Virus record (IMG/VR): IMGVR_UViG_3300003310_000099
Location: 42,295-106,294 of that record
Strand: one strand, 5' to 3'
From: a virus
Lineage: Duplodnaviria > Heunggongvirae > Uroviricota > Caudoviricetes
DNA: 64,000 bases
Below the pieces are notes generated by a model, which worked only from the letters and a program-made list of their open reading frames with translations, was not told the origin of the DNA and made no database searches. This document shows positions 1 to 9,939 of this stretch, piece after piece; the first letter of the stretch is position 1, and every line of letters begins with the position of its first letter. The position numbers and the translations under genes are program-made.

Positions 1-170
1 AGCAACAGCCATGCGCCGCCTTTACGGGCACAAACCCCGTAGAACAGGGGCATGATAATACGAAGCATCCTTGAGCGATGACGGCTCAGGGATAAAACCT
101 GAGCCAGATTGGGAAGAACACTATAACCTTGGCTCAGGTTAACACCCTGAGCCAAGGTTTTTTGTTTATA

Positions 171-188
171 CCTTAGCTGTACCGAAGG
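171..188 (+). promoter_or_regulatory. conserved motif copy 1 (CCTTAGCTGTACCGAAGG)
   Basis: One of six same-orientation copies of …[AT]ACCTTAGCTGTACC[GT]A[GA]…. Lies upstream of the tRNA array. Confidence 0.4.
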
Positions 189-329
189 AAATACCGACCG
201 ATTGACGTAACTCCCGTAATGTTCTATGACTTTACGGATCGGTGTCATGAAGTTGGACGCGGGTTCTTTGAAAATTTGGTTGGGGATTCATGCCTGGCAT
301 TAAGTTGTTGAGGATGAATCCCCCTGTAC

Positions 330-400
330 GGACGATTAGTTCAATGGTAGAATGTTAGCATGACACGCTAGAGAAAAAGGTTCGATTCCTTTATCGTCCA
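330..400 (+). tRNA. tRNA, anticodon read as GAC (Val)
   Basis: Cloverleaf by eye: acceptor ggacgat/atcgtcc, T-arm aaggTTCGATTcctt, anticodon loop atGACac. Confidence 0.6.
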
Positions 401-409
401 CTCTCGAAT

Positions 410-484
410 CAGGGATTAGCTCAGCTTGGCTAGAGCGCTTGTTTTGGAAACAAGAGGCCGAAGGTTCAAATCCTTTATCCCTGA
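410..484 (+). tRNA. tRNA-Pro (TGG)
   Basis: Acceptor cagggat/atccctg, D-stem gctc/gagc, anticodon arm cttgt-ttTGGaa-acaag, T-loop TTCAAAT. Confidence 0.65.
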
Positions 485-493
485 CTGTTTATG

Positions 494-566
494 TCTCCAT
501 GATCGTAACTGGATAACGATTCTGGCTCTTAACCAGAACATCTCGGTTCAAATCCGAGTGGGGACA
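494..566 (+). tRNA. tRNA-Lys (CTT)
   Basis: Acceptor gtctcca/tggggac (one G-U), anticodon arm tctgg-ctCTTaa-ccaga, T-arm ctcggTTCAAATccgag. Confidence 0.6.
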
Positions 567-568
567 CT

Positions 569-639
569 GTGAGCGAAGCCAAATGGATAGGCGACTGTTT
601 GTGAAGCAGTTAATAGCGGGTTCGATTCCCGTCGCTCAC
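569..639 (+). tRNA. tRNA-His (GTG), G-1 encoded, C73 discriminator
   Basis: Acceptor tgagcga/tcgctca preceded by G and followed by C. Anticodon arm actgt-ttGTGaa-gcagt. T-arm gcgggTTCGATTcccgt. Confidence 0.65.
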
Positions 640-700
640 CTTGGAAATTTTAAAAAGGAGATTTTGAAATGATTTATAAACGCAGGAGTCATACAAATAT

Positions 701-774
701 GGCTCCGAAACCTTTAGCTGGATGAGGTCCAGTCTTTTAAACTGGAAAAGAGGGTTCGATTCCCTACGGAGCTA
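701..774 (+). tRNA. tRNA, anticodon read as TTT (Lys); copy 1 of a duplicated gene
   Basis: Acceptor ggctccg/cggagct, anticodon arm ccagt-ctTTTaa-actgg, T-loop TTCGATT. Near-identical copy at 3107..3180 with compensatory acceptor-stem changes (t-a to c-g). Confidence 0.6.
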
Positions 775-776
775 CT

Positions 777-1208
777 ATGAAAAAATGTAGTAATTGCAAC
801 AAAGATAAAGCTCTATCGGAATTCAATAAAAAAAGGCAAGGATTACAACCTTGGTGCAGAGAATGCAATAGGTTGCGATCAAGGTTATATTATGCTCAAA
901 ACAAAGACAATCATTTGCAGGTGATTCAATCTCGTAAAGATAAGATTTACAAAGAGCATAATAGAAAAATTAAAGAAATAAAGTCTAATGCCTGTTGTGC
1001 ATTATGCCCAGAATCGGAATCGGTTTGTTTAGACTTCCACCATTTGAGAGATAAGGATGTTCCTATAAGCAGAATAGTGCATCGAGGATATTCTTGGGAA
1101 CGTATATTAATGGAAATGAAAAAATGCGTGGTTTTGTGTTCTAATTGCCATAGAAAAGTTCATGCTGGCATCCTAACTGTGAATGAAGAAATGTTATGGA
1201 CTAATTGA
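777..1208 (+). CDS. HNH homing endonuclease with N-terminal CxxC zinc finger
   Basis: 143 aa. CSNC…CREC N-terminal Zn finger, LDFHHL and CSNCH motifs (HNH). ATG starts 3 nt after the tRNA at 701..774. Paralogous to ORFs at 7165, 12323 and 39213. Confidence 0.8.
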   Translation: MKKCSNCNKDKALSEFNKKRQGLQPWCRECNRLRSRLYYAQNKDNHLQVIQSRKDKIYKEHNRKIKEIKSNACCALCPESESVCLDFHHLRDKDVPISRIVHRGYSWERILMEMKKCVVLCSNCHRKVHAGILTVNEEMLWTN

Positions 1209-1276
1209 GGATTCGTCTAATGGTAGGACGGAAGGCTTTGAACCTTCCTGTGGGCGTTCGAATCGCTCATCCTCAG
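1207..1276 (+). tRNA. tRNA-Gln (TTG)
   Basis: Acceptor tgaggat/atcctca, anticodon arm gaagg-ctTTGaa-ccttc, T-loop TTCGAAT. Confidence 0.65.
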
Positions 1277-1314
1277 CTTGTTTTAAAATTGAGAAAAGAG
1301 TATTATAGAAAAAT

Positions 1315-1389
1315 CGGGCTATGGGCTAATTGGTAAGCCGCCTGCGTCGGAAGCAGGACAACATTTCAGTTCGAATCTGAATAGCCCGA
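1315..1389 (+). tRNA. tRNA, anticodon read as CGG (Pro)
   Basis: Acceptor cgggcta/tagcccg perfect, anticodon arm cctgc-gtCGGaa-gcagg, T-arm ttcagTTCGAATctgaa. Tandem paralog of 1424..1498. Confidence 0.55.
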
Positions 1390-1395
1390 CTGGAT

Positions 1396-1413
1396 ACCTT
1401 AGCTGTACCTAGT
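1396..1413 (+). promoter_or_regulatory. conserved motif copy 2 (ACCTTAGCTGTACCTAGT)
   Basis: Lies between the tRNAs at 1315..1389 and 1424..1498. Confidence 0.4.
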
Positions 1414-1423
1414 AAGTTGTTAT

Positions 1424-1498
1424 CTGGCTGTGGGCTAATTGGTAAGCCTCCTGCGTTGGAAGCAGGACACCATCTCAGTTCGAATCTGAGTAGCCAGA
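1424..1498 (+). tRNA. tRNA, anticodon read as TGG (Pro)
   Basis: Acceptor ctggctg/tagccag, anticodon arm cctgc-gtTGGaa-gcagg, T-arm ctcagTTCGAATctgag. Differs from 1315..1389 mainly at anticodon position 34. Confidence 0.55.
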
Positions 1499-1506
1499 CT
1501 GTAGAT

Positions 1507-1578
1507 GGCTCATTCCGCTAATGGTCAGGCGAGCGGACTTTCAATCCGCCAACAAGGGTTCGATTCCCTTATGAGCTA
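1507..1578 (+). tRNA. tRNA-Glu (TTC)
   Basis: Acceptor ggctcat/atgagct, anticodon arm gcgga-ctTTCaa-tccgc, T-arm agggTTCGATTccct. Confidence 0.6.
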
Positions 1579-1581
1579 CTA

Positions 1582-1654
1582 GTGAGTGTCGTAGTGTATC
1601 GGACAGCACGCCACCGTCCTGGTGGAAGGGCCGTTCAATTCGGTAGCACTCACT
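1582..1654 (+). ncRNA. tRNA-sized structured element (tRNA-like, fold unresolved)
   Basis: Occupies a tRNA slot in the array. Perfect 7-bp terminal pairing gtgagtg/cactcac, T-loop-like GTTCAATTC, but the internal hairpin ccacc-gtcct-ggtgg has only a 5-nt loop. Shares the 13-mer GGACAGCACGCCA with the element at 2325..2392. Confidence 0.3.
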
Positions 1655-1661
1655 GCCTATC

Positions 1662-1730
1662 GGGGGTAGTCTATGGGTAGCCGTTGGCACTTGCAATGCC
1701 GACTATGGGGATCGTAACCCCATACCTCCA
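1662..1730 (+). tRNA. tRNA-Ala (TGC) with non-canonical T-loop ATCGTAA
   Basis: Acceptor gggggta/tacctcc, 7-bp anticodon stem gttggca/tgccgac with loop ctTGCaa, T-arm tgggg-ATCGTAA-cccca. Near-paralog of 35345..35417. Confidence 0.5.
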
Positions 1731-1737
1731 CTGTTAA

Positions 1738-1810
1738 GGGCCGTAATGTTCTCTGGGGAGCGAGGATGCCTTGCAAGCAACCTGGATGAGTTCGATTCTC
1801 ATACGGTCCA
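1738..1810 (+). ncRNA. degenerate tRNA-like element (anticodon loop ctTGCaa)
   Basis: Acceptor gggccgt/acggtcc and T-arm atgagTTCGATTctcat are good, but the D-arm is poor, the variable region is 3 nt and the anticodon stem has a mismatch. Confidence 0.35.
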
Positions 1811-1816
1811 CTGAAA

Positions 1817-1838
1817 GCTTAGCTGTACTGAGTGTAAT
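1817..1838 (+). promoter_or_regulatory. conserved motif copy 3 (AGCTTAGCTGTACTGAGTG)
   Basis: Lies between the tRNA-like element ending 1810 and tRNA-Val at 1841. Confidence 0.35.
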
Positions 1839-1840
1839 AT

Positions 1841-1912
1841 CGGCCATTGTGTGAAATGGTATCACGCTTCTTTTACACGGAAGAGTCGGGGGTTCGATTC
1901 CCTCATGGCCGA
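1841..1912 (+). tRNA. tRNA-Val (TAC)
   Basis: Acceptor cggccat/atggccg perfect, anticodon arm cttct-ttTACac-ggaag, T-arm gggggTTCGATTccctc. Confidence 0.65.
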
Positions 1913-1921
1913 CTGATTGAT

Positions 1922-1994
1922 GGTGTCTGTAGTGTAGTGGTCTGCACGCCTGTTTGTGAAGCAGAAAGTGCGGGTTCGATTCCCGTCAGACACC
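1922..1994 (+). tRNA. tRNA-His (GTG), second copy, G-1/C73
   Basis: G + gtgtctg … cagacac + C, anticodon loop ttGTGaa, T-arm gcgggTTCGATTcccgt. Confidence 0.55.
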
Positions 1995-1999
1995 CTTAT

Positions 2000-2070
2000 G
2001 CCGCATTCAACTTCTAGGAGGTTATCTGGTTTTCACCCAGAGTAGACGGGAGCGTAACCCGTATGCGGTA
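2000..2070 (+). tRNA. tRNA, anticodon read as TTC (Glu), non-canonical T-loop AGCGTAA
   Basis: Acceptor gccgcat/atgcggt, anticodon arm tctgg-ttTTCac-ccaga, T-arm acggg-AGCGTAA-cccgt. Confidence 0.45.
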
Positions 2071-2075
2071 CTGAA

Positions 2076-2148
2076 CGGCCTATGTTGTAGTGGTTCTGCA
2101 AAACTGTCTGATAAGCAGTGAGTCCAGGTTCGATTCCTGGTGGGCCGA
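2076..2148 (+). tRNA. tRNA-Ile (GAT)
   Basis: Acceptor cggccta/tgggccg, anticodon arm actgt-ctGATaa-gcagt, T-arm ccaggTTCGATTcctgg. Confidence 0.65.
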
Positions 2149-2220
2149 CTGTTCTCTACCAATGGTAGATAACCACTAAAGGTTTTCCCGTTGAACCCGC
2201 CTGGCAAATCAACGGTACTT

Positions 2221-2291
2221 GCCGCCATAGTCTAATGGTAGAACGTATCCTTGGTACGGATAAAATCTGAGTTCGATTCTCAGTGGCGGCT
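2221..2291 (+). tRNA. tRNA-Thr (GGT)
   Basis: Acceptor gccgcca/tggcggc perfect, anticodon arm tatcc-ttGGTac-ggata, T-arm ctgagTTCGATTctcag. Confidence 0.7.
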
Positions 2292-2324
2292 CTGGGACTA
2301 ACATTCAAGGAAGGATGTAAAGAG

Positions 2325-2392
2325 CATGTGGCATGGTAAGGGACAGCACGCCATGTCTTACAGAGTTTGCGGCTGGCATGTTCGTCCAATTC
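2325..2392 (+). ncRNA. tRNA-sized structured element (tRNA-like, fold unresolved)
   Basis: Lies directly 5' of tRNA-Gly at 2393. Contains GGACAGCACGCCA (shared with 1582..1654) and a T-loop-like GTTCGTCCAATTCG. No clean cloverleaf found by eye. Confidence 0.25.
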
Positions 2393-2467
2393 GCGGCATA
2401 CGCATTGTGGCTGTTGCGCCTGTCTTCCAAACAGGATTTTAGAGGGGTTCGATTCCCCTATGCCGCA
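2393..2467 (+). tRNA. tRNA-Gly (TCC)
   Basis: Acceptor gcggcat/atgccgc perfect, anticodon arm cctgt-ctTCCaa-acagg, T-arm agggGTTCGATTCccct. Confidence 0.7.
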
Positions 2468-2478
2468 CTGAAATTTAT

Positions 2479-2565
2479 TCCTGGGGAGTGATTATTGGTA
2501 ATCACGCACGGCTGTTAACCGTGTAATACCGCAAGGTTATGCTGGTTCGATTCCAGCCCCAGGAG
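2479..2565 (+). tRNA. type II tRNA (17-nt variable arm) with anticodon read as GTT
   Basis: 87 nt. Acceptor tcctggg/cccagga perfect. Anticodon arm cacgg-ctGTTaa-ccgtg. Variable arm taataccGCAAggttat (GCAA-capped). T-arm gctggTTCGATTccagc. Confidence 0.55.
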
Positions 2566-2570
2566 CTTTA

Positions 2571-2864
2571 TTGGAGTTTATTATGTACGGAACAGTTGTA
2601 TCTTATATTCACCACGATAAACGTGGTGGAGCAATGGTCGAAATCATTACACAAACCGATTTTGCTGCAAATTCACAAGAAGTAAATGACTTTGGCAAGT
2701 GGGTTGCAATGATTGCTTATGGCTTTAATCTACCAAGTTGGGATTATTTTCTTGAAAAAGAAGCCAAGATGAATATATCGAGTGCTGGTAAACTCGGCAA
2801 GTTAATCGAAGAAGTGAAAGAAAATGTTAAGGTTGGTCGTATTACAATCTTGAAGGTAGAGTAA
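2571..2864 (+). CDS. hypothetical protein (97 aa)
   Basis: ORF starts 6 nt after the tRNA array. No recognisable motif. Confidence 0.45.
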   Translation: MEFIMYGTVVSYIHHDKRGGAMVEIITQTDFAANSQEVNDFGKWVAMIAYGFNLPSWDYFLEKEAKMNISSAGKLGKLIEEVKENVKVGRITILKVE

Positions 2865-3073
2865 TGTTTGCAATACAATTAACTAAGAATGTAGGGACCG
2901 AAGTTATCAGTTGGTGGTGCGAAGATGGTTTGCACAAAACTGGTTATGGGGCAGAAAGGTTTCGTAGACTTTATGCCGAAGAAGGGGAAGCTCAAAGACA
3001 CCTTGATTATTGTCGTGATTGGGCTTATCGTCATCATAGAAACACTTTAAAAGTTAGTGTAAAGGAGATTTAA
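2864..3073 (+). CDS. hypothetical protein (69 aa)
   Basis: Overlaps the stop of the upstream ORF by 1 nt (ATGA), consistent with translational coupling. Confidence 0.45.
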   Translation: MFAIQLTKNVGTEVISWWCEDGLHKTGYGAERFRRLYAEEGEAQRHLDYCRDWAYRHHRNTLKVSVKEI

Positions 3074-3106
3074 AATGTTTTATAAACGTAGGGGTCATTC
3101 AAATAT

Positions 3107-3180
3107 GGCCCCGAAACCTTTAGCTGGATGAGGTCCAGTCTTTTAAACTGGAAAAGAGGGTTCGATTCCCTACGGGGCTA
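3107..3180 (+). tRNA. tRNA, anticodon read as TTT (Lys); copy 2
   Basis: Acceptor ggccccg/cggggct, otherwise identical to 701..774. About 25 nt of upstream flank (ttataaacg[c/t]agg[a/g]gtcat) is also conserved. Confidence 0.6.
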
Positions 3181-3273
3181 CTTAATGGAAGCCTTACTTT
3201 TTGAATACGGTACGATTGCTGCATTAGCATTACTACTCGTATTATTGATTTGTAGTTTGTTTAGGAAGTAATT

Positions 3274-3346
3274 GCGGTGGGTCCAGTGCTGGTACTGGAG
3301 CCTGTCTTTGAAGCAGGAAGTCGCTGGTTCGATTCCAGCCGCCGCA
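3274..3346 (+). tRNA. tRNA-Gln (TTG), second copy
   Basis: Acceptor gcggtgg/ccgccgc (one G-U), D-stem ccag/ctgg, anticodon arm cctgt-ctTTGaa-gcagg, T-arm gctggTTCGATTccagc. Confidence 0.6.
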
Positions 3347-3348
3347 GC

Positions 3349-3669
3349 TTAGAAACGTTTCCAACCTGGATGATCCTGTCCCCAAGGAATAACCTTGCCA
3401 GGGTCGCGTTCAGAGGGTACTTGTTGTTGATATTGTTTCCATTTATCGCGGGCACCTGTTTCGCTCATATATTGTTTCAAGGCACGAATTAATGGAATTT
3501 GTAGAGCTTGTCTTAGTTGATCTACTTCAGCCTTAGCCTGTGGGGTCAACATATCATAATAGCTCTTTAATTTAGGAGGTAAATCTCTATAATCAGAGTT
3601 AAATACTCCTTTAATAAATTGACCTACGCCTTCGTCTTTACGGGTGCAGTATTCTTTGAATGTTTCCAT
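3349..3669 (-). CDS. hypothetical protein (106 aa)
   Basis: Minus-strand ORF. The overlapping plus-strand ORFs run through the tRNA and are rejected. Confidence 0.4.
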   Translation of the reverse strand: METFKEYCTRKDEGVGQFIKGVFNSDYRDLPPKLKSYYDMLTPQAKAEVDQLRQALQIPLIRALKQYMSETGARDKWKQYQQQVPSERDPGKVIPWGQDHPGWKRF

Positions 3670-3702
3670 GTTTTATTTAGGCAACTGTGATGGATTTCTA
3701 AA

Positions 3703-3774
3703 GCCGCTCTAACATAGTGGACTATGTGCCTGTGTGAAGAACAGGAAATCTGGGTTCAATTCCCAGGGGCGGCA
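3703..3774 (+). tRNA. tRNA-Phe (GAA)
   Basis: Acceptor gccgctc/gggcggc, D-stem acat/atgt, anticodon arm cctgt-gtGAAga-acagg, T-arm ctgggTTCAATTcccag. Confidence 0.6.
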
Positions 3775-3786
3775 CTATATACATTC

Positions 3787-4164
3787 ATGAGTGCAGCAAG
3801 AAGAAAATTTGCGTTTGGTTATCCTGATGGATATGGTGCGGCATTATATCCACCTGCTTATGATGCAACAGTATCTGCAACAGCTTTTTTGCAGTATCAA
3901 TTTCGTGCAGAGCAACAGGATAAAGCGCCACCAGATACAGCATTAGTAGACAAAAGTGGGGATTTAGCACAAAAAGAATACAAGGCTAAATATCCACCAG
4001 CTGATTTACCGCCCCATTCTGGTCTTTCTTCTTACAAAGGATTTGGCTATAAAGATGGCATAGGTTATATATTTTTCCAATCAGAGCCTACTGGTCCAGG
4101 TGTATACTCTTTTAAAGAGTGGTTGAGAAAAAATAATATAAACCCTGACAAATTTCCGAAATAA
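3787..4164 (+). CDS. hypothetical Tyr/Pro/Gly-rich protein (125 aa)
   Basis: The ORF-track start at 3724 lies inside the tRNA; the internal ATG at 3787 is used. Low-complexity YPPAY/GYG repeats. Confidence 0.45.
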   Translation: MSAARRKFAFGYPDGYGAALYPPAYDATVSATAFLQYQFRAEQQDKAPPDTALVDKSGDLAQKEYKAKYPPADLPPHSGLSSYKGFGYKDGIGYIFFQSEPTGPGVYSFKEWLRKNNINPDKFPK

Positions 4165-4175
4165 GGAGTTAAAAA

Positions 4176-4323
4176 TGAGTTGGGGTTCAAAAATCTTGGC
4201 GGCTGGCATTATACACAAAGTCAGCAAAGATAAGAAACCTGCTGGCGGTTGGATTGAACTAGGTTTCACGGTTTTTTGCATTTTGGCTGTTTTGGCTTTT
4301 GGAATTTGGGCTATCCTCCGATA
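4176..4323 (+). CDS. small hydrophobic membrane peptide (49 aa)
   Basis: MSWGSKILAAGIIHKVSKDKKPAGGWIELGFTVFCILAVLAFGIWAILR: a single predicted TM helix. Below the ORF-track length cut-off. Its stop overlaps a copy of the TTAGCTGTACC motif. Confidence 0.35.
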
Positions 4324-4343
4324 GCTTAGCTGTACCGAGTAGT
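4320..4343 (+). promoter_or_regulatory. conserved motif copy 4 (GATAGCTTAGCTGTACCGAGTAG)
   Basis: Overlaps the stop of small ORF 4176..4323. Confidence 0.4.
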
Positions 4344-4378
4344 CTGTGGGAAAACTTTGAGTTGTTCATAAATACTAC

Positions 4379-5017
4379 ATGATGGATTTCAAGGACTACT
4401 GTATGGCAAACACTGTCAATCTGAGTGATATTTCTTTGTTTGAATCACAGTTTTTATTCAAAGAAATGGCGGTTTTGAACCCAAACGCGATTGCGAAGAC
4501 TCAGAACGCTTTTCAGTTTATTTACGATAATAACATTCGTGGTGTTATCATTGGGGGTATGGCCGTCAGTCATTATACTCAGGACAGAAAGTTGACGCCT
4601 GATGTTGATTTTCTTACAGCGGATATCAATGCTGTGAAAGCAGCATTGCAAAAGAATCAGATGGCTTCGCGGCCTTTGGCTTCGACTGGAGATTTCGGTG
4701 GTCTTTATGTTCCTCAGTTAGATGCCGATTTTTTGGATGCTAATGAAGGTTCAGATGTAGCATTAAACCACTATATCTTGAAGACTGCGAAGACTGCAAC
4801 TATCGGGGGAGTAACTTTCCCGATTATTGATCCAGCAGTTTTGATGATTATGAAGTTCGTCATTGGCAGGGATAAAGATCAGGCTGACGCTTTCAAGTTG
4901 CTGCCAACTTTGAATAAGGCGGAATTAAAAACGCATTTGAAGGCTTTGAAGGGGGTTTTGCCAAAGGGAATGGCTAAAACCATTTGGGATGATGCTCAAT
5001 GGGCTGTTAAAGTTTAA
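4379..5017 (+). CDS. nucleotidyltransferase-fold protein (AbiEii/DUF1814-like GG…D.DF motif)
   Basis: 212 aa. GVIIGGMAVSHYTQDRKLTPDVDFL resembles the Pol-beta-type NTase signature (GG.A…R.T.D.D). Confidence 0.45.
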   Translation: MMDFKDYCMANTVNLSDISLFESQFLFKEMAVLNPNAIAKTQNAFQFIYDNNIRGVIIGGMAVSHYTQDRKLTPDVDFLTADINAVKAALQKNQMASRPLASTGDFGGLYVPQLDADFLDANEGSDVALNHYILKTAKTATIGGVTFPIIDPAVLMIMKFVIGRDKDQADAFKLLPTLNKAELKTHLKALKGVLPKGMAKTIWDDAQWAVKV

Positions 5018-5025
5018 GGGGAATT

Positions 5026-5214
5026 ATGTATAATTTTGAATATTATGAAGATAGAATGCGAGAATGGCGTTGGCGTGTGAAGCACCAAAATGGTAATATC
5101 ATTGCTGTCAGTAGTGAAGGCTACGAAAACAAGCAGGATATGTTGGATGTTCTGGATAACTTGGTCAATTTCATCAAATGCGATAGCGTTCAATGGAACG
5201 AAGTAGTAGCATGA
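5026..5214 (+). CDS. DUF1508/YegP-like small protein
   Basis: 62 aa. WRWRVKHQNGNIIAVSSEGYENKQDMLDVL matches the YegP repeat signature. Confidence 0.5.
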   Translation: MYNFEYYEDRMREWRWRVKHQNGNIIAVSSEGYENKQDMLDVLDNLVNFIKCDSVQWNEVVA

Positions 5215-5423
5215 AGTATTATTGTGACAAATCCAGACATTTGATTTGTTTACCTTATTCAATCGAGAATTTACACTTGATGGCACTTGATTTGAATATA
5301 AAACGGCACTGGTTTCATAAGACACATTATGATATTCCTAAACAGAGGATTGAAGAAATCACCGCTAAGTGTACGGTGATTTCTTCAAAAGAAATAGTTA
5401 GGATGATACGCCAAGGAAGCTAA
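5193..5423 (+). CDS. hypothetical protein (76 aa)
   Basis: ORF. Its last 14 nt overlap the tRNA starting at 5410. Confidence 0.35.
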   Translation: MERSSSMKYYCDKSRHLICLPYSIENLHLMALDLNIKRHWFHKTHYDIPKQRIEEITAKCTVISSKEIVRMIRQGS

Positions 5424-5482
5424 TCTGGTGAAAGCGCAAGTCTGAAGAACTTGATAGGTCGGATCGAAACCGACCCTTGGCA
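5410..5482 (+). tRNA. tRNA-Phe (GAA), second copy, T-loop ATCGAAA
   Basis: Acceptor gccaagg/ccttggc perfect, anticodon arm caagt-ctGAAga-acttg, T-arm gtcgg-ATCGAAA-ccgac. Confidence 0.5.
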
Positions 5483-5573
5483 CTTTCCTGTGGTTTAAAT
5501 ACTGAAATTAGGCGGCTCTAACGAGCGCTGAGAACGCCAACAGTAATTTCATGACTCAGCACACAGGAAATAT

Positions 5574-5645
5574 GGGGGAGTGTAGCGGTTTTCTACACAT
5601 TTGTTTCATAAGCAAGTGGTAACGGTTCAACTCCGTTCTTCCCTA
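5574..5645 (+). tRNA. tRNA with CAT anticodon (Met, fMet or Ile-lysidine type)
   Basis: Acceptor gggggag/cttccct (two G-U), anticodon arm tttgt-ttCATaa-gcaag, T-arm aacggTTCAACTccgtt. D-arm spacing slightly irregular. Confidence 0.5.
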
Positions 5646-5762
5646 CTATGGTGAGCCTTACCCCAACTGAGAGAGAAATTTCTAGGGACGGTCAATCCCG
5701 ATGATGAAATAGTATTTCAACTAGGTGACTCAAGGCTGAGAGGGTGACTCCTCTCAATTTAC

Positions 5763-5834
5763 TCCCCTGTCTTTCAAATGGTAGGAAAACTGGCTGTTAA
5801 CCAGTGAATCTAGGTTCGAGTCCTAGTGGGGGAG
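5763..5834 (+). tRNA. tRNA-Asn (GTT)
   Basis: Acceptor tcccctg/tggggga, D-stem tttc/gaaa, anticodon arm actgg-ctGTTaa-ccagt, T-arm ctaggTTCGAGTcctag. Confidence 0.6.
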
Positions 5835-5836
5835 CT

Positions 5837-6019
5837 ATGAAACCAATATATTCAAAAGCTGGTGATTCAGTATCTTATTTTTATAAGGATGAACGTTGTC
5901 TCGCTGTTCAGGTCGATCCTTATTTGACGATTTACTATTCACTGAAAGACAATGAAATTGTTGGTGTGAAGATCAATGGTGTTGGATGTTTTGAAGAAGA
6001 TGATGCCGCTATGGTATAA
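5837..6019 (+). CDS. hypothetical protein (60 aa)
   Basis: Internal ATG 3 nt after the tRNA is used instead of the track start at 5804. The 3' end overlaps the next tRNA. Confidence 0.35.
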   Translation: MKPIYSKAGDSVSYFYKDERCLAVQVDPYLTIYYSLKDNEIVGVKINGVGCFEEDDAAMV

Positions 6020-6075
6020 TGGTATTACGTCGCTCTTGTAAGGCGAAAATCTGAGTTCGATTCTCAGTGGCGGCT
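6005..6075 (+). tRNA. tRNA-Thr (TGT)
   Basis: Acceptor gccgcta/tggcggc, anticodon arm tcgct-ctTGTaa-ggcga, T-arm ctgagTTCGATTctcag. Confidence 0.6.
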
Positions 6076-6076
6076 C

Positions 6077-6382
6077 TTGGAGGTTTCAATGACTCAGGAA
6101 GAAATTTTAGATCGTATTGTAGAAATTATTGAAACCTATCCTACTCCACTTCCAGAAGAAGTGAAAAAGGAATGGAGTGATTTGAATGATGCGATGCGAG
6201 AACTGCATGAACCGTCTTATGGTATTGGGTTCTGGCATAAAGGTTACGAAATTGAATTATATGGTCACAAAATTTTGTACTGTAAGAAGTCAGTAGAAGA
6301 ATACAAAGATATGCTTAGAATGTTTGGTGGTGAAATGACTATCGAGCAGTATAATGACAAGTGGAGTGGAAAGGCATGTTAA
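6077..6382 (+). CDS. hypothetical protein (101 aa)
   Basis: ATG 2 nt after the tRNA. Acidic N-terminus. Confidence 0.45.
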   Translation: MEVSMTQEEILDRIVEIIETYPTPLPEEVKKEWSDLNDAMRELHEPSYGIGFWHKGYEIELYGHKILYCKKSVEEYKDMLRMFGGEMTIEQYNDKWSGKAC

Positions 6383-6520
6383 ATGAATTTGAGCAGGAGT
6401 TGGTGAAAGAAATCCTTATTGAAGCTCAAATGACGAAAGACACATTTATGCGTTCTTTCGAGCGATTAGAGAAACTGGCCCAACGGTTATTAAAAGAAGT
6501 AGATAAGAAAGAACCGACTA

Positions 6521-6733
6521 ATGATTAACTTTGAAGCCTTTGTGTTGTATTATACTGCTTTTCATGAAGGCGAACTTAATATTAAAGAATTTAAGGAAAT
6601 GTTGCTGGCAGACGTTGGGGAAGAAGGTTTTAAGGAAGCACTCGCTATTTTCAAGCAGAAAAGAGAAGAGAGGCTTGCGGCGGGTGATAAGCGGACGTTA
6701 TATGATGCAACGAAGGTGGAGAAGAAGGATTGA
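6521..6733 (+). CDS. hypothetical protein (70 aa)
   Basis: ORF. Overlapping frame 6531..6803 rejected. Confidence 0.35.
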   Translation: MINFEAFVLYYTAFHEGELNIKEFKEMLLADVGEEGFKEALAIFKQKREERLAAGDKRTLYDATKVEKKD

Positions 6734-6874
6734 ATTGGGCTTGTACGTCAATGGTAAGACTTCGTGCTTTAAGCCGATACATGGAGTCAATAGGCGTAGC
6801 TAACCTATCTTTGTCCATGATGAATGCTAGACATTCTTCAGGCAGGAACTGCACGAAAAGCGGGTTCGATTCCC
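6727..6874 (+). tRNA. tRNA-like gene with ~85-nt insertion in the anticodon region (possible intron-containing tRNA)
   Basis: 5' half gggcttg-ta-gtc-aatggtaa-gac-t-tcgtg-ctttaag…, 3' half …cacga-aaa-gcgggTTCGATTcccgc-ctagccc. Anticodon stem tcgtg/cacga pairs only across the insert. Anticodon would read TTA or TAA depending on register. Confidence 0.35.
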
Positions 6875-6883
6875 GCCTAGCCC

Positions 6884-6956
6884 ACTGGATTATGCCCCTA
6901 TGCTCGTAATTGGTAACGAACGAGTCTCTTAAACTCGGAATCAGGGTTCGACTCCC
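6884..6956 (+). tRNA. tRNA-Lys (CTT), second copy
   Basis: Acceptor gccccta/tgggggc, D-stem tcg/cga, anticodon arm cgagt-ctCTTaa-actcg, T-arm cagggTTCGACTccctg. Confidence 0.6.
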
Positions 6957-7028
6957 TGTGGGGGCACTGTTAGTCACGGAACAGTCGAAAGGCCAGGGCC
7001 GTGCCAGGGTTAAAATCCTGACGAACAC

Positions 7029-7103
7029 ATGTTCGTATTGTGGAGGATTAGATGCTGGCATCTAAACTAGCCTCTGAAGCTAGCTCTCACTGGTTCGATT
7101 CCA
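7029..7103 (+). tRNA. tRNA-Gln (CTG)
   Basis: Acceptor tgtggag/ctccaca perfect, D-stem ttag/ctaa, anticodon arm ctagc-ctCTGaa-gctag, T-arm actggTTCGATTccagt. Confidence 0.65.
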
Positions 7104-7164
7104 GTCTCCACAGCTTATATTGCATAGCTCAAAGTTATATGGTATATTTGAACCTGGAGGTTCT

Positions 7165-7518
7165 ATGCCATATAAAGATGTTGATAAACAAAAAGAGTCA
7201 CAGCAAACTTATTACCAAAAGAATAAGGATTTGTATAAAGCTAGGGATAAAGAAAGAAAAGAAGAAATAAAAACTTGGGTTAGAAATTATCGTATTTCTA
7301 AAGTTTGTGAGGATTGTGGTGAAGACCGATGGCAATGTTTAGATTTCCACCATATAGATTCGAGTAACAAGTTTTTATCTATTAGTATGATGGTGCGAAA
7401 GAAATATTCTGTAGAAAAGATTAAGAATGAAATAATGAAGTGTAAAGTTATTTGTGCTAACTGTCATCGGTGTCATCATAGCGGTAATGTTTGGGAGAGT
7501 GCTAGTCTCGGAGTGTAA
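7165..7518 (+). CDS. HNH homing endonuclease (zinc-finger type)
   Basis: 117 aa from the internal ATG preceded by GGAGG. CEDCGE…LDFHHID…CANCH motifs. Confidence 0.8.
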   Translation: MPYKDVDKQKESQQTYYQKNKDLYKARDKERKEEIKTWVRNYRISKVCEDCGEDRWQCLDFHHIDSSNKFLSISMMVRKKYSVEKIKNEIMKCKVICANCHRCHHSGNVWESASLGV

Positions 7519-7576
7519 TGGCTTCGCACACAACCCTGTCACGGTTGTAGAGCGGGTTCGATTCCCGTCGAGACTG
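7504..7576 (+). tRNA. tRNA-Asp (GTC)
   Basis: Acceptor agtctcg/cgagact perfect, anticodon arm caacc-ctGTCac-ggttg, T-arm gcgggTTCGATTcccgt. Overlaps the last 15 nt of the HNH ORF. Confidence 0.65.
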
Positions 7577-7581
7577 CTTTT

Positions 7582-7654
7582 GGTTCCGTAGTGTAATGGT
7601 GTAGCACGGCACCCTGTCAAGGTGTAAGAGCGAGTTCAATTCTCGTCGGGACCG
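7582..7654 (+). tRNA. tRNA-Asp (GTC), tandem second copy
   Basis: Acceptor ggttccg/cgggacc, anticodon arm gcacc-ctGTCaa-ggtgt, T-arm gcgagTTCAATTctcgt. Confidence 0.6.
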
Positions 7655-7663
7655 CTTAGTTTT

Positions 7664-7735
7664 GGCTCTATGGTGAAATGGATATCATCGGATGCTTCTA
7701 ACATCTGGGTCCAGGTTCGATTCCTGGTGGGGCTG
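7664..7735 (+). tRNA. tRNA-Arg (TCT)
   Basis: Acceptor ggctcta/tggggct (three G-U), anticodon arm ggatg-ctTCTaa-catct, T-arm ccaggTTCGATTcctgg. Confidence 0.55.
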
Positions 7736-7769
7736 CTAACAATACAGATTATTAAGACTATATATCTGT

Positions 7770-8147
7770 ATGCCAATGTATCCTTGCATTTGCACTCCTT
7801 ATGCTCCAGGGACTCCTGTAGATTGCAGTATTCCTGGTGTTGGTGATGCAGGTGGAATATTAGAATTACAATTATTAAATGTCCAAATGGGCATGATGGG
7901 TGTTTACGGAGGTTGCGGCCTTACTTTCTACACTTATTCAATTGCTTATAATGTGACTTTTGGTCCATCAGGGGCTTTTCAAATTCAACAATTTAATAAG
8001 CATTTAGGCGAATGGCAGATGAACATGTTCAGTGGAGTATTGTACCAGACGACTGGTGCATTAAATTCCTATGGTCCTTTTTTACCACTTGACCAGATTC
8101 CAATATTTTGGAATAATGTAGTTCTGCCTCCTACGAATGCGAGGTGA
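7770..8147 (+). CDS. hypothetical protein (125 aa)
   Basis: ORF. Gly-rich. Confidence 0.45.
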   Translation: MPMYPCICTPYAPGTPVDCSIPGVGDAGGILELQLLNVQMGMMGVYGGCGLTFYTYSIAYNVTFGPSGAFQIQQFNKHLGEWQMNMFSGVLYQTTGALNSYGPFLPLDQIPIFWNNVVLPPTNAR

Positions 8148-8150
8148 TTT

Positions 8151-8342
8151 ATGGCAAAAAAGAAGGAAGTAAAGGAAAAATTCAAGTTCGTAAAGATTAG
8201 TGAATTGCATAGTGTTTACGAAGTAGTAGAGATTCCACCTGGCGCAACTCACGTTGAATCAGAGACTGATTACAGTGGCTGTTATTACGAGAGTGATATG
8301 CCAAGTGTGAAGGTCACTTTCTACAGGAAAGAAAAGGTATGA
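8151..8342 (+). CDS. hypothetical protein (63 aa)
   Basis: ORF with AAGGAA-like RBS. Confidence 0.4.
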   Translation: MAKKKEVKEKFKFVKISELHSVYEVVEIPPGATHVESETDYSGCYYESDMPSVKVTFYRKEKV

Positions 8343-8512
8343 AAATTGCTGCTATTGTCGAATTAAACGCTCAAGAACTCAAGTATCTTCTTCACGCTCT
8401 TACTAAACTTGATGCACACTACAATGTAGGGTCCAGGGATTTTAATCGTGAAGAGATGCATGAGAAGCTACAGACGAAGCTTGAAAAAGCAGCTTCGTCT
8501 GGTTTAAAATAG
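8339..8512 (+). CDS. hypothetical protein (58 aa)
   Basis: ATG overlaps the upstream stop. The 3' end contains a 9-bp perfect hairpin gacgaagct…agcttcgtc. Below the track cut-off. Confidence 0.3.
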   Translation: MKIAAIVELNAQELKYLLHALTKLDAHYNVGSRDFNREEMHEKLQTKLEKAASSGLK

Positions 8513-8583
8513 CCCTACTGTTGGTGGGTACAACGGGAAGCCTCCAAAACTTCTGCTTGCGGGTTCGATTCCTGCTAGGGCTG
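8511..8583 (+). tRNA. tRNA-Trp (CCA)
   Basis: Acceptor agcccta/tagggct, D-stem gttg/caac, anticodon arm gaagc-ctCCAaa-acttc (31–39 mismatch), T-arm gcgggTTCGATTcctgc. Confidence 0.55.
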
Positions 8584-8590
8584 CTTTTAT

Positions 8591-8661
8591 AGGTGCGTAG
8601 TGTAATGGTAGCATATCAGTCTCCAAAACTGCTGGTGGGCGTTCGACTCGCTCCGCACCTG
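8591..8661 (+). tRNA. tRNA, anticodon read as CCA (Trp), second copy
   Basis: Acceptor aggtgcg/cgcacct perfect, anticodon loop ctCCAaa with a weak 4-bp stem, T-arm gggcgTTCGACTcgctc. Confidence 0.45.
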
Positions 8662-8670
8662 CTTATTTAT

Positions 8671-8743
8671 TCCTCAATAGCTCAATAGGTAGAGCGCAAA
8701 GCTGTTAACTTTGATGTTCTAGGTTCGAGTCCTAGTTGAGGAG
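8671..8743 (+). tRNA. tRNA-Asn (GTT), second copy
   Basis: Acceptor tcctcaa/ttgagga perfect, anticodon arm caaag-ctGTTaa-ctttg, T-arm ctaggTTCGAGTcctag. Confidence 0.65.
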
Positions 8744-8749
8744 CTTTTT

Positions 8750-8974
8750 ATGCCTGACGACAACATTATTGACATGCGGGATTTTACTCCTGAAGACCAT
8801 GAACGAGTCAAAGAGAACTTGTTGAAAAGTTCTTATCTTTGTCCCAAATGCAAATCTTTACATTTGACAAGTGAGGATGTGGCTGGTAGAGTCTGCTGTT
8901 CATCTCCTGGTAAGTTTTATTGCGAAGGCATCTTATACAAAGTCAAAGATTTGGATGAAATTTATGAAAATTGA
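8750..8974 (+). CDS. hypothetical zinc-ribbon protein (74 aa)
   Basis: CPKC…CC motifs. Confidence 0.4.
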   Translation: MPDDNIIDMRDFTPEDHERVKENLLKSSYLCPKCKSLHLTSEDVAGRVCCSSPGKFYCEGILYKVKDLDEIYEN

Positions 8975-9336: not shown

Positions 9337-9353
9337 GCATTATATAGGTTTCT

Positions 9354-9862: not shown

Positions 9863-9923
9863 TATAATGGTAGTACACAACTCTCGTAAAGTTGGAGTTT
9901 GGGTTCGATTCCCAGCGGTGGCT
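9853..9923 (+). tRNA. tRNA-Thr (CGT)
   Basis: Acceptor gccaccg/cggtggc perfect, anticodon arm caact-ctCGTaa-agttg, T-arm ttgggTTCGATTcccag. Confidence 0.65.
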
Positions 9924-9939
9924 CTCACAGGAGACTTTC

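Follow-up and report, generated by a model that had tools for sequence, protein, structure and literature searches.

The window analysed here, a 64-kb stretch of viral DNA, is identical in sequence to positions 265308-329307 of the 596,394-bp JGI contig Ga0071082_100015. With default settings, ARAGORN identified 49 tRNA genes within it, 48 on the + strand and one on the - strand, with 38 of these calls falling in the first 15 kb. When anticodon-loop insertions were permitted, a gene at 6737-6885 was added, bringing the total to 50, and the low-threshold mode returned a further, pseudogene-like call at 1584-1653. The Rfam RF00005 gathering score was reached at 43 sites in the window, or 44 with the site at 8511-8583 (30.7 bits). 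No ARAGORN call was made in 20 dinucleotide-preserving shuffles of the window. The genes other than the atypical, long-arm and interrupted ones were as follows (coordinates, strand, gene, ARAGORN score, Rfam bits).

330-401, +, tRNA-Val(GAC), 116.7, 66.0
410-485, +, tRNA-Pro(TGG), 119.7, 67.3
493-567, +, tRNA-Lys(CTT), 108.8, 51.8
569-640, +, tRNA-His(GTG) with encoded G-1:C73, 112.0, 55.4
1206-1277, +, tRNA-Gln(TTG), 119.3, 58.4
1315-1390, +, tRNA-Pro(CGG), 89% identical to 1424-1499, 119.8, 55.3
1424-1499, +, tRNA-Pro(TGG), 116.6, 51.2
1507-1579, +, tRNA-Glu(TTC), 108.6, 61.2
1841-1913, +, tRNA-Val(TAC), 105.6, 47.7
1923-1995, +, tRNA-His(GTG) with G-1:C73, 113.3, 61.7
2076-2149, +, tRNA-Ile(GAT), 112.7, 56.5
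2221-2292, +, tRNA-Thr(GGT), 117.5, 62.9
2393-2468, +, tRNA-Gly(TCC), 111.0, 45.4
3273-3348, +, tRNA-Gln(TTG), 108.5, 42.9
3703-3775, +, tRNA-Phe(GAA), 111.3, 55.7
5410-5483, +, tRNA-Phe(GAA) with T-loop ATCGAAA, 103.0, 56.0
5574-5646, +, tRNA-Met(CAT), 102.7, 38.2
5763-5835, +, tRNA-Asn(GTT), 111.3, 51.7
6005-6076, +, tRNA-Thr(TGT), 116.7, 65.2
6894-6967, +, tRNA-Lys(CTT), 111.9, 56.0
7504-7577, +, tRNA-Asp(GTC), 114.5, 52.4
7582-7655, +, tRNA-Asp(GTC), 116.0, 62.3
7664-7736, +, tRNA-Arg(TCT), 121.1, 49.2
8511-8584, +, tRNA-Trp(CCA), 107.7, 30.7
8591-8662, +, tRNA-Trp(CCA), 117.1, 58.7
8671-8744, +, tRNA-Asn(GTT), 119.5, 70.4
9853-9924, +, tRNA-Thr(CGT), 120.4, 63.9
12756-12830, +, tRNA-Arg(ACG), 109.0, 52.5
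12837-12909, +, tRNA-Gly(GCC), 124.1, 70.1
12913-12984, +, tRNA-Gly(CCC), 120.1, 67.2
13201-13271, +, tRNA-Gly(GCC), 109.9, 58.4
14224-14296, +, tRNA-Glu(TTC), 115.6, 58.1
30044-30119, +, tRNA-Pro(TGG), 111.6, 64.3
33840-33912, +, tRNA-Arg(TCG), 116.8, 56.0
35345-35418, +, tRNA-Ala(TGC) with T-loop ATCGTAA, 116.5, 55.6
36147-36219, +, tRNA-Val(TAC), 116.9, 67.1
41112-41184, +, tRNA-Arg(TCT), 120.0, 68.4
48758-48830, +, tRNA-Thr(TGT), 118.2, 55.5
49755-49827, +, tRNA-Gly(TCC), 114.0, 67.3

Alongside these we found atypical genes, genes with a long variable arm, two genes interrupted in the anticodon loop, and degenerate copies.

701-775, +, atypical tRNA-Lys(TTT) with A8 and a weak T-stem, ARAGORN 104.9, Rfam 23.3 (below threshold)
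3107-3181, +, atypical tRNA-Lys(TTT), duplicate of 701-775, ARAGORN 105.3
1662-1731, +, atypical tRNA-Ala(TGC) with G3:U70 and T-loop ATCGTAA, ARAGORN 100.0, no Rfam score
1738-1811, +, atypical tRNA-Ala(TGC), ARAGORN 110.5, Rfam 25.0 (below threshold)
7039-7114, +, atypical tRNA-Gln(CTG), ARAGORN 108.9, Rfam Sec model only at 29.1 (below threshold)
2479-2566, +, tRNA-Asn(GTT) with long variable arm ACC-GCAA-GGU, ARAGORN 120.7, Rfam 31.8
39124-39208, +, tRNA-Cys(GCA) with U73 and long variable arm GGGC-GCAA-GCCC, ARAGORN 120.3, Rfam 57.2
40206-40286, +, tRNA-Arg(CCT) with added variable arm GGC-GCAA-GCC, ARAGORN 119.1, Rfam 53.5
43199-43286, +, atypical tRNA-Ile(TAT) with long variable arm and 3-bp D stem, ARAGORN 116.7, no Rfam score
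6737-6885, +, tRNA gene whose anticodon loop is interrupted by a structured 76-nt insertion, Rfam 43.3 bits, ARAGORN intron mode 107.8
61727-61819, -, CAT-anticodon tRNA (Met or Ile2 type) with a 20-nt hairpin in the anticodon loop, Rfam 61.5
1584-1653, +, degenerate Gly-TCC-like remnant lacking U33, ARAGORN low-threshold mode only, 97.7
1999-2069, +, perfect tRNA-like cloverleaf as minimum-energy fold (z -2.25), anticodon loop of Glu type (UUC), T-loop AGCGTAA

Six ARAGORN calls (beginning at 701, 1662, 1738, 3107, 7039 and 43199) fall below the Rfam threshold, and each of the weak calls that was folded (701, 1662 and 43199) adopts a cloverleaf as its unconstrained minimum-energy structure. 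In all 50 genes position 33 is U and position 37 a purine, as had been claimed from the sequence, and their discriminators and special identity elements are consistent with bacterial rules, including a G-1 that pairs with C73 in both His genes (again as first read), G3:U70 in Ala, U1-A72 with G73 in Asn and Gln, and U73 in Cys. The window thus contains about 50 real tRNA genes at very high density, and neither program returned far fewer than about 40 calls (ARAGORN 49-50, Rfam 44); between 6 and 10 of these genes are atypical or degenerate, and they may lack a role in translation. The sequence-only reading had counted about 55 tRNA or tRNA-like genes and a 21-gene array at 330-2565. The tools recover 17 genes in this array (330-2566), the others being degenerate tRNA-like remnants, and both of the higher figures arise because 2-4 such remnants were included. 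The remnants at 1584-1653, 1999-2069 and 2293-2392 have no Rfam score; 1999-2069 is called by neither Rfam nor ARAGORN, and 1584-1653 shares a D-arm-like motif with part of 2293-2392. The anticodons read by eye agreed almost exactly with those of ARAGORN, although three Ala and three Asn genes were not fully counted, Arg(CCT) and Ile(TAT) were omitted, and Cys, which had been thought missing, is represented at 39124-39208.

The less ordinary features of this set are the long-arm class I tRNAs, the anticodon-loop interruptions and a conserved 3' trailer, with 41 of the 50 genes having C74-U75 after the discriminator. An added long variable arm is present on four class I tRNAs of the window. The minimum-energy fold has five arms both for Asn(GTT) at 2479-2566 (U1-A72, G73; z -3.8) and for Ile(TAT) at 43199-43286, where z is only -1.4. 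For the interrupted genes, the anticodon of 6737-6885 is uncertain (ARAGORN reads TAA), and 61727-61819 scores 114.5 in ARAGORN's intron mode and 101.4 by default, where it is read as Val(AAC). Several other elements accompany the tRNA genes.

125-159, +, strong hairpin resembling an intrinsic terminator (14 bp, T run), immediately upstream of the island
172-182, +, motif CTTAGCTGTAC, copy 1 of 6
777-1208, +, HNH homing-endonuclease-like ORF between two tRNA genes (phrog_2255, E 7e-29)
2571-2864, +, 97-aa ORF similar to the N-terminal portion of elongation factor Ts (Pfam EF_TS, 28.0 bits against a cut-off of 27 bits)
7120-7518, +, second HNH endonuclease-like ORF between tRNA genes (phrog_2255, E 8e-24)

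The remaining copies of CTTAGCTGTAC lie at 1398, 1818, 4325, 11229 and 38760; all six are intergenic and on the + strand, against 0.69 expected in the window, making the motif a candidate phage promoter or processing signal. Transcription would run along the + strand, probably yielding multi-gene precursors for trimming by RNase P and 3'-end enzymes of the host, and CCA addition must be post-transcriptional, because no tRNA gene of the window encodes it.

With its ~50 bacterial-type tRNAs, the window's island covers 17 amino acids, those whose tRNAs normally have short variable loops. That Leu, Ser and Tyr genes are lacking, as noted at the outset, is true of the window only: about 160 kb away on the same contig, a second island, adjoined by Mre11/Rad50-like genes, carries 5 Leu, 4 Ser and 1 Tyr tRNAs and no others, so the phage repertoire has no such gap. 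Our scan covered ~103 kb of the 596-kb contig, and the total count and the strict split apply within that scope. The same two-island split was found in five relatives (LR756511.1, L115, L116, L107 and L113). Under standard wobble rules, the two islands combined can read all 61 sense codons. Taken together, these data make it probable that the principal tRNA island of a ~596-kb huge phage lies in the window, as part of a two-island set that provides the phage with its own tRNA pool and that has grown by duplication and decay.

Codon-usage compensation, in which tRNAs serve codons that are frequent in the phage (40% G+C) and poorly served by the host pool, is the classical account of phage tRNAs, and the phage genes do prefer A/T-ending codons; furthermore, larger huge-phage genomes carry more tRNA genes (PMC7162821). 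We nevertheless regard it as unlikely here. Instead of being selective, the set is complete, and copy number is unrelated to amino-acid use, with four Pro genes for 3.9% of codons. The set also reads codons that are rare in phage genes (CCG, GGG, ACG, CGA and AGG), through Pro-CGG (CCG being 10% of Pro codons), Gly-CCC, Thr-CGT, Arg-TCG and Arg-CCT, and this reach into rarely used codons supports a phage-owned pool.

The internal duplications proposed from the sequence were borne out for only a few recent pairs. The Lys(TTT) genes at 701-775 and 3107-3181 are 97% identical and, as claimed, show compensation in their acceptor stems (T:A to C:G), and the other recent pairs are Pro CGG/TGG (89%) and Thr GGT/TGT (84%); most same-anticodon pairs, however, are only ~70% identical, no nearer than unrelated tRNAs. 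An anticodon shift in one recent paralogue pair, together with the decayed remnants, suggests that local duplication, accompanied by anticodon shifts, and the decay of old copies would underlie the island's growth and turnover, probably aided by the homing endonucleases between tRNA genes. Phage tRNA segments are amplified by a homing endonuclease in T6 (PMC13096335), but the analogy is indirect, because SegB is a GIY-YIG enzyme and the window ORFs are HNH-type. The two HNH ORFs placed exactly between tRNA genes, the three remnants, the two interrupted genes and an additional 78-nt tRNA-like unit in a variant from another sample (L089) could also be read as mainly selfish or neutral accumulation, in which homing endonucleases and recombination copy tRNA segments and many copies are decaying passengers. 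This is improbable, as most genes score 50-70 bits and retain all identity elements, same-anticodon paralogues are old yet intact, and the overall content and two-island layout are kept in LR756511.1 despite a ligase protein identity of only 70%.

Still less probable is that the long-arm subset is charged by a class II-type synthetase such as SerRS, mis-decoding Asn, Cys, Arg and Ile codons as allo-tRNAs do. Mis-decoding tRNAs of this kind occur in nature, and PMC7609411 gives a long variable arm plus G73 as the identity set of SerRS, both of which Asn(GUU) at 2479-2566 possesses. But the added arms are short (3-4 bp), the cognate identity sets are retained (GUU, G73 and U1-A72 in Asn; GCA and U73 in Cys), U1-A72 with G73 is kept in 46 of 76 viral examples, and each of the long-arm tRNAs shows a canonical 7/5 acceptor/T-stem, unlike allo-tRNAs. 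They can be aligned to ordinary class I tRNAs of LR756511.1, whose 73-nt Cys tRNA matches the window's Cys gene apart from the extra arm. LR756511.1 also has related copies of the long-arm Asn tRNA and the interrupted CAT-anticodon tRNA, and class I tRNAs with an added long arm are common across viral tRNA arrays.

Finally, a non-phage origin, in which the stretch would be a mis-assembly or belong to a bacterial chromosome or plasmid as a tRNA array unit, is hardly tenable: dense arrays are borne by mycobacterial plasmids and chromosomes (PMC12803027), similar ones are present in some GTDB genomes, and artefacts are known among IMG assemblies of such size (PMC7162821), but the sequence recurs on independent contigs of a second sample (L089, L091 and L118), the content is phage-like (HNH endonucleases, a T4-type ligase, a weak gp15-like match and many small ORFs on one strand), and the layout matches a curated circular 595-kb phage genome.

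The tRNA density, which had been placed at the extreme end for phages, is so only roughly, since it has precedents and equally large sets are known in huge phages: Xanthomonas phage XacN1 has 56 tRNA genes within a 66-kb repeat (PMC5852040), complete huge-phage genomes have up to 67 (PMC7162821), and LR756511.1, a curated and complete 595-kb genome, has 63 by ARAGORN. The island most likely serves as a self-sufficient tRNA pool for the phage. The tRNA-cleaving defences PARIS, retrons and Septu are neutralised by phage tRNAs (PMC12409363, PMC11555353, PMC13096335, PMC10264068), and a pool of its own would both offset the cutting of host tRNAs by such nucleases and keep phage translation running once host tRNAs have been broken down in the course of takeover.

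In the window ARAGORN called 49 tRNA genes, 48 of them on the + strand and the last, 61727-61819, on the - strand, and it added a fiftieth (6737-6885) once insertions in the anticodon loop were permitted; it called nothing in 20 dinucleotide-preserving shuffles of the window. The Rfam model RF00005 reached its curated threshold at 43 sites, to which a more permissive run added 8511-8583 at 30.7 bits, giving 44 sites in the window at or above the gathering score of 29 bits (30.7-70.4 bits). The tool-supported set comprises 50 genes, and the high-confidence set 44. Six ARAGORN calls (starting at 701, 1662, 1738, 3107, 7039 and 43199) fall below the RF00005 threshold, as do three remnants; for those sub-threshold calls that were folded, the predicted cloverleaf was the unconstrained minimum-energy structure. 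The remnants (1999-2069, 1584-1653 and 2293-2392) receive no Rfam score. The first has a perfect cloverleaf fold and a Glu-type UUC loop, but its T-loop reads AGCGUAA; the second is pseudogene-like and was called by ARAGORN only in its low-threshold mode; and a D-arm-like motif of the His genes recurs in the second and in part of the third. The figure of about 55 tRNA or tRNA-like genes put forward in the sequence-only reading was generous but fair, with 50 tool-supported genes and a remainder of degenerate units, while its 21-gene array (330-2566) comes down to 17 genes called by the tools, the extra units being degenerate and without an Rfam score.

Features that had been read directly from the cloverleaves held up, with U33 and purine 37 present in all 50 genes and G-1:C73 in both His genes. 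The same reading had found no Leu, Ser, Tyr or Cys genes; the first three classes are indeed absent from the window, but a Cys(GCA) gene lies at 39124-39208, and genes for Arg(CCT) and Ile(TAT) had also been overlooked. The T-loop starts with TTC in 46 of the 50 genes, with ATC in three and with TTT in one. A54 is found in the T-loop of three genes (ATCG(T/A)AA), and two of the A54 T-loops sit in Ala-TGC tRNAs that retain G3:U70.

T-loops with A54 (ATCGTAA, ATCGAAA, AGCGTAA)
1662-1731: tRNA gene
5410-5483: tRNA gene
35345-35418: tRNA gene
1999-2069: remnant

Leu, Ser and Tyr account for 8.1%, 5.6% and 4.1% of window codons, and amino-acid usage in the window's ORFs is normal, yet the window lacks tRNAs for all three. 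The whole sequence of LR756511.1, a curated huge-phage relative, was scanned for tRNAs, and its Mre11-like gene was then traced to the window's own contig by protein search, by cluster listing and through P0124; a metagenome scan with the Mre11-like protein of LR756511.1 had not brought up this contig. A second island was found there, at ~99.7-105.6 kb of Ga0071082_100015 (positions 2119-8094 of the stretch L117), 160 kb from the window and adjoining Mre11/Rad50-like genes. It holds ten tRNA genes, five for Leu, four for Ser and one for Tyr, and no other tRNAs. That class II tRNAs had simply escaped detection in the window is ruled out, as ARAGORN readily finds such tRNAs in relatives and in L117, and a genome devoid of Leu, Ser and Tyr tRNAs is ruled out by the ten-gene island on the same contig. 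With the second island the repertoire is therefore complete: given standard wobble, and with U34 reading all four codons of Pro and of Ala, we infer that the two islands together read all 61 sense codons.

The two-island split is conserved across a clade of roughly 590-kb phages. LR756511.1 carries a tmRNA along with 63 tRNAs. Its class I tRNAs, about 50 in number, occupy 177-291 kb, and a cluster at 427.7-437.5 kb, beside Mre11-/Rad50-like genes, consists solely of six Leu, two Tyr and four Ser genes, with one further Leu gene at 6.3 kb. Four other relatives also have an island of Leu, Ser and Tyr genes only ahead of the Mre11-like gene (15 genes in L115, eight in L116, seven in L107 and four in L113), and P0003 and P0035, which belong to other relatives, mark extra examples. 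The tRNA classes are mixed in L055, a locus of a more distant relative. In the second island, three Leu tRNAs measure just 75 nt and have a variable loop of 5 nt, which gives them a class I shape; the islands therefore segregate by amino acid and not strictly by shape. Leu tRNAs of 75-76 nt with a 5-nt variable loop are also seen in L107 and L115.

Short Leu tRNAs of the second island (positions in L117)
5185-5259, - strand: Leu tRNA, anticodon CAA
5265-5339, - strand: Leu tRNA, anticodon TAG
5786-5860, - strand: Leu tRNA, anticodon TAA

The window is identical to positions 265308-329307 of the public JGI contig Ga0071082_100015 (596,394 bp, sample 3300005058), and near-identical pieces were found in a second sample. 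Immediately upstream of the window there is a single further tRNA (CAT), and the 9 kb before it are free of tRNAs. The 51 tRNAs of the window and its immediate upstream, together with the ten of the second island, bring the total to at least 61 in ~103 kb scanned, inside the published huge-phage range of up to 67 per genome (PMC7162821). The contig is far longer than 200 kb and its closest annotated relative is a curated complete phage, LR756511.1, or SR-VP_PHAGE_COMPLETE_CIR-CU-CL_42_23, a circular genome of 595,163 bp (Al-Shayeb et al. 2020, PMC7162821); the earlier size record was a circular phage genome of 596 kb (PMC7162821). The gene set is very dense for a phage, as had been thought from the sequence, at a density that is within the known range. 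Xanthomonas jumbo phage XacN1 carries 56 tRNA genes, for all 20 amino acids, in ~66 kb, which is essentially the density of the window (PMC5852040). Unlike those of the window, the XacN1 genes sit in long direct terminal repeats of a 385-kb genome; relatedness between the two was not detected, and the abstract of that report describes no two-island split (PMC5852040).

The phage of the window resembles LR756511.1 in genome size (about 0.6 Mb), in having an island with about 50 class I tRNAs and a separate one, for Leu/Ser/Tyr, by Mre11/Rad50-like genes, and in the lack of encoded CCA, the C74-U75 trailer and the interrupted CAT tRNA. Their ligases are nevertheless only 70% identical as proteins, and nucleotide similarity is limited to one tRNA. 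A 390-kb IMG/VR contig is closer (ligase 86%) but unannotated, and its tRNA order is partly syntenic with the window. When window positions 1-15000 were compared with the phage collection by nucleotide search, the sole match was 77 nt of tRNA, so the phage has no close sequenced relative there. LR756511.1 also has three extras not seen in the window, in which ARAGORN found no suppressor tRNA.

Additional RNA genes of LR756511.1
179588-179661, - strand: CTA-anticodon (amber-reading) tRNA
341280-341632, - strand: tmRNA, tag ANPEFAMAA
290614-290689, - strand: tRNA with a possible 4-base anticodon

Four genes of the window combine anticodons of class I tRNAs with a variable arm of at least 10 nt, the length expected of class II, and all four fold into five-arm minimum-energy structures.

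Class I tRNA genes with an added variable arm
2479-2566, + strand: Asn-GTT, arm ACC-GCAA-GGU
39124-39208, + strand: Cys-GCA, arm GGGC-GCAA-GCCC
40206-40286, + strand: Arg-CCT, arm GGC-GCAA-GCC
43199-43286, + strand: Ile-TAT, long variable arm

The nearest known type is the allo-tRNA. Allo-tRNAs and selC*-type tRNA-Cys (Mukai et al. 2017; PMC7609411) likewise join a long arm to an anticodon that is not for Leu, Ser or Tyr, but allo-tRNAs have an 8/4 or 9/3 division between acceptor and T stem and Ser or Ala identity (PMC7609411), whereas the window's Asn, Cys and Arg genes have identity elements that match the anticodon. All four have a 7-bp acceptor stem and a 5-bp T stem, which rules out allo-tRNAs. 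An origin from Leu, Ser or Tyr tRNAs by mutation of the anticodon was rejected in view of the Asn and Cys identity elements and of alignments with LR756511.1 tRNAs of class I. If the inserted arm is set aside, the Cys, Arg and Asn genes can be aligned to tRNAs of ordinary length in that phage, while Ile-TAT aligns poorly with its counterpart. The anticodons (GTT, GCA, CCT and TAT) lie outside class II, and in the first three genes the discriminator and the first acceptor-stem pair agree with Asn, Cys and Arg identity, respectively; since these identity elements match the anticodons, we interpret the four genes as tRNAs of class I onto which an arm has been grafted. Unlike those of the window, the Cys, Arg-CCT and Ile-TAT tRNAs of LR756511.1 have a normal length, and it is Thr-UGU that carries such an arm there (GUC-GAAA-GAC).

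We looked for this architecture more widely by scanning IMG/VR for GUU anticodon loops whose distance from the T-loop is that of class II tRNAs, and 80 matching loci (L119-L198) were listed. Among these listed matches, at least 76 are called by ARAGORN as Asn(GUU) tRNAs of 79-94 nt, of which at least 46 have U1-A72 and G73, at least 21 have G1-C72 and G73, and at least 28 have a GNRA loop on the arm. The 74 distinct variable regions among the listed matches fold better than their shuffles (mean z -2.6), and 36 of the 74 are individually significant at p<=0.05, against about four expected by chance. Long versions of other isotypes occur in the same listed loci, for Ile-UAU (9/18), Thr-UGU (11/34), Met/Ile-CAU (12/57) and Cys (6/32). 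In GTDB genomes only 22 of 120 pattern matches (L238 onward) are real tRNAs, and most of these sit in dense arrays (10-36 tRNA genes per 8 kb), among them arrays of Mycobacterium, Micromonospora and Verrucosispora. Bacterial tRNA arrays and at least 76 viral contigs thus carry the long-arm Asn version, which is apparently undescribed in the literature searched; the long-arm class I type is not mentioned in the searchable reviews of non-canonical tRNAs and of tRNA identity.

Mycobacterial tRNA array units, known from chromosomes, plasmids and phages, are accessory arrays for 19-20 amino acids (PMC12803027; Morgado and Vicente 2018). Their tRNAs differ from those of the host in the D, anticodon and variable arms and have been proposed to act as anti-defence devices (PMC12803027). 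Arrays of this type in GTDB genomes share with the window the Asn tRNAs with a long variable arm; unlike the two islands of this phage, they are on bacterial replicons and smaller, and a class split is not reported for them. In tRNAs for Lys, Thr and Asn, the PARIS nuclease AriB cuts between nucleotides 40 and 41. Because this site, on the 3' strand of the anticodon stem, adjoins the exit point of the added arm, it is conceivable that the arm would protect against tRNA-targeting nucleases.

A second departure from the ordinary cloverleaf is found within the anticodon arm. The CAT-anticodon tRNA at 61727-61819 (-; Rfam 61.5 bits) has a 20-nt hairpin in its anticodon loop, and the hairpin of its counterpart in LR756511.1 (L093, a piece of that genome, 20337-20430, -) is homologous, measures 21 nt and sits 3 nt further upstream; excising either hairpin restores a CUCAUAA loop. 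At 6737-6885 (Rfam 43.3 bits) a structured insertion of 76 nt lies between the D arm and the T arm. In its intron mode ARAGORN also found two tRNA-like genes of LR756511.1 (L092, another piece of that genome, 39133-39258 and 41310-41437, both -) with inserts of ~40-55 nt (53 nt in one); both have the linker AGCATACAAACA and a second hairpin, whose loop measures 7 nt. Minimum-energy folds flank the 61727-61819 hairpin with a symmetric 5x5 internal loop and give a multi-branch insert at 6737-6885; on inspection by eye, a clear bulge-helix-bulge (3-nt bulges, 4 bp apart), the junction motif of protein-spliced tRNA introns in archaea and eukaryotes, was not seen in either fold. Group I introns can be dismissed, as they need ~200 nt or more with a P1-P9 core and the inserts measure 20 and 76 nt. 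The Rfam intron families gave no match to the window's inserts even at E up to 10. Further relatives of the interrupted CAT tRNA were sought through the gp15-like protein, which returned only distant relatives, and through a DNA pattern, which gave six chance matches and no tRNA. We know of no means by which bacteria splice short insertions out of tRNA genes, and no known bacterial splicing route fits the hairpin insert of the CAT tRNA.

A strong terminator-like hairpin (125-159) stands ahead of the start of the main island, and the motif CTTAGCTGTAC occurs six times in the window, always on the + strand and intergenic, against 0.69 copies expected by chance. Its extended consensus is gATA(C/G)CTTAGCTGTACyNAGT, and three of the six copies adjoin tRNAs. 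A seventh copy (L117 7990, -) is found in the second island, flanked by two tRNAs whose orientation it shares, and the motif was not found in relatives. It is a candidate phage promoter or processing signal.

Copies of gATA(C/G)CTTAGCTGTAC in the window
172, + strand: motif copy
1398, + strand: motif copy
1818, + strand: motif copy
4325, + strand: motif copy
11229, + strand: motif copy
38760, + strand: motif copy

CCA is encoded by none of the 50 window genes, and in 41 of them the discriminator is followed directly by C74-U75. The same trailer is found in 53 of 62 genes of LR756511.1, in all ten of L117, in 14 of 15 in L115 and in seven of eight in L001, another relative's locus, while L055 has C-A after the discriminator. 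The transcripts must therefore be trimmed at the 3' end and receive CCA as they mature, and the uniform C74-U75 suggests a common 3'-maturation route or signal.

Turnover within the island is visible in its paralogues. The Lys-TTT pair at 701 and 3107 is 97% identical, with one compensatory acceptor-stem change, as had been reported from the sequence; the adjacent Pro-CGG and Pro-TGG genes are 89% identical and appear to be a tandem duplication followed by an anticodon shift, and the Thr-GGT/TGT pair is 84% identical, while pairs with the same anticodon are mostly just ~70% identical. Upstream of each Lys-TTT copy stand AAGGAG and an ORF of 18 codons that extends into the tRNA (668-724 and 3074-3130, +); with three non-synonymous and two synonymous differences, there is no support for this ORF as coding. 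L089, a near-identical contig from the second sample, has one extra tRNA-like unit of 78 nt (11221-11298, corresponding to window ~1996) between His and the Glu-like remnant, and to judge from this variant the array's copy number differs between populations. The recent pairs, the decayed remnants and the extra unit together speak for birth-and-death turnover.

Phage T4 has eight tRNA genes and T5 about two dozen, against 60 or more in the phage of the window. HNH-type ORFs at 777-1208 and 7120-7518 are each wedged exactly between tRNA genes and abut them on both sides, and a third lies at 22322-23362. As in T4-/T5-like clusters with SegB (PMC13096335), tRNA genes of the window are interleaved with homing-endonuclease genes, here less than 1 kb away. 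A SegB enzyme proper is rejected, since SegB is of the GIY-YIG family and the window's ORFs match HNH families instead. Also inside the island, at 4379-5017 (+), is an ORF for a DUF2204-type nucleotidyltransferase, whose homologues have neighbourhoods without tRNAs. Directly 3' of the array, a 97-aa ORF (2571-2864, +) resembles the N-terminal part of elongation factor Ts (Pfam 28.0 bits, cut-off 27).

The other neighbours form a gene set typical of accessory regions in very large phages, with a T4-type ATP-dependent ligase, HNH endonucleases, NAPRTase, a PP2C phosphatase with kinase, an SPFH protein, SAICAR synthetase, an ion channel, methionine aminopeptidase, NADAR, a DNA methylase and a weak match to T4 gp15. 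Relatives of the ORF at 41721-42239 were not found in IMG/VR.

Selected protein-coding genes
Window 16803-17477: ion channel
Window 18311-19687: NAPRTase
Window 25942-28624: PP2C phosphatase and kinase
Window 50833-51642: methionine aminopeptidase
Window 60468-60959: NADAR
L090 14247-14615: peptidyl-tRNA hydrolase 2
L117 13137-16499: intein-containing ribonucleotide reductase, after the second island

The discriminators and special identity elements of the tRNAs fit bacterial rules, including G-1:C73 in His, G3:U70 in Ala, U73 in Cys and Gly, and U1-A72 with G73 in Asn and Gln (for Asn, see PMC9976931), which makes charging by host-type synthetases plausible. The set is complete, not selective, and it covers codons that the phage itself seldom uses; both features favour a self-sufficient pool over simple codon compensation. 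Such a pool would sustain translation once host tRNAs had been degraded or cleaved. Published findings agree with this: phage tRNAs neutralise the PARIS, retron and Septu nucleases and have cleavage-resistant changes (PMC12409363, PMC11555353, PMC10264068, PMC13096335), and under such nuclease pressure phage tRNA segments are amplified by a homing endonuclease (PMC13096335). One joint reading would hold that arm-grafted class I tRNAs (Asn-GUU foremost, also Thr-UGU, Ile-UAU, Met/Ile-CAU, Cys and Arg-CCU, often with a GNRA loop) are an undescribed type in phage and mobile-element arrays, which keep cognate identity and use the arm as a shield or decoy against tRNA-targeting defences, alongside a conserved Leu/Ser/Tyr island and anticodon-loop inserts that need removal; we offer it tentatively and think it unlikely as a whole. 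The region is one more example of a known huge-phage pattern, in which near-complete decoding sets bear on the host-independence of translation in very large phages, and on their arms race with tRNA-cleaving immune systems.
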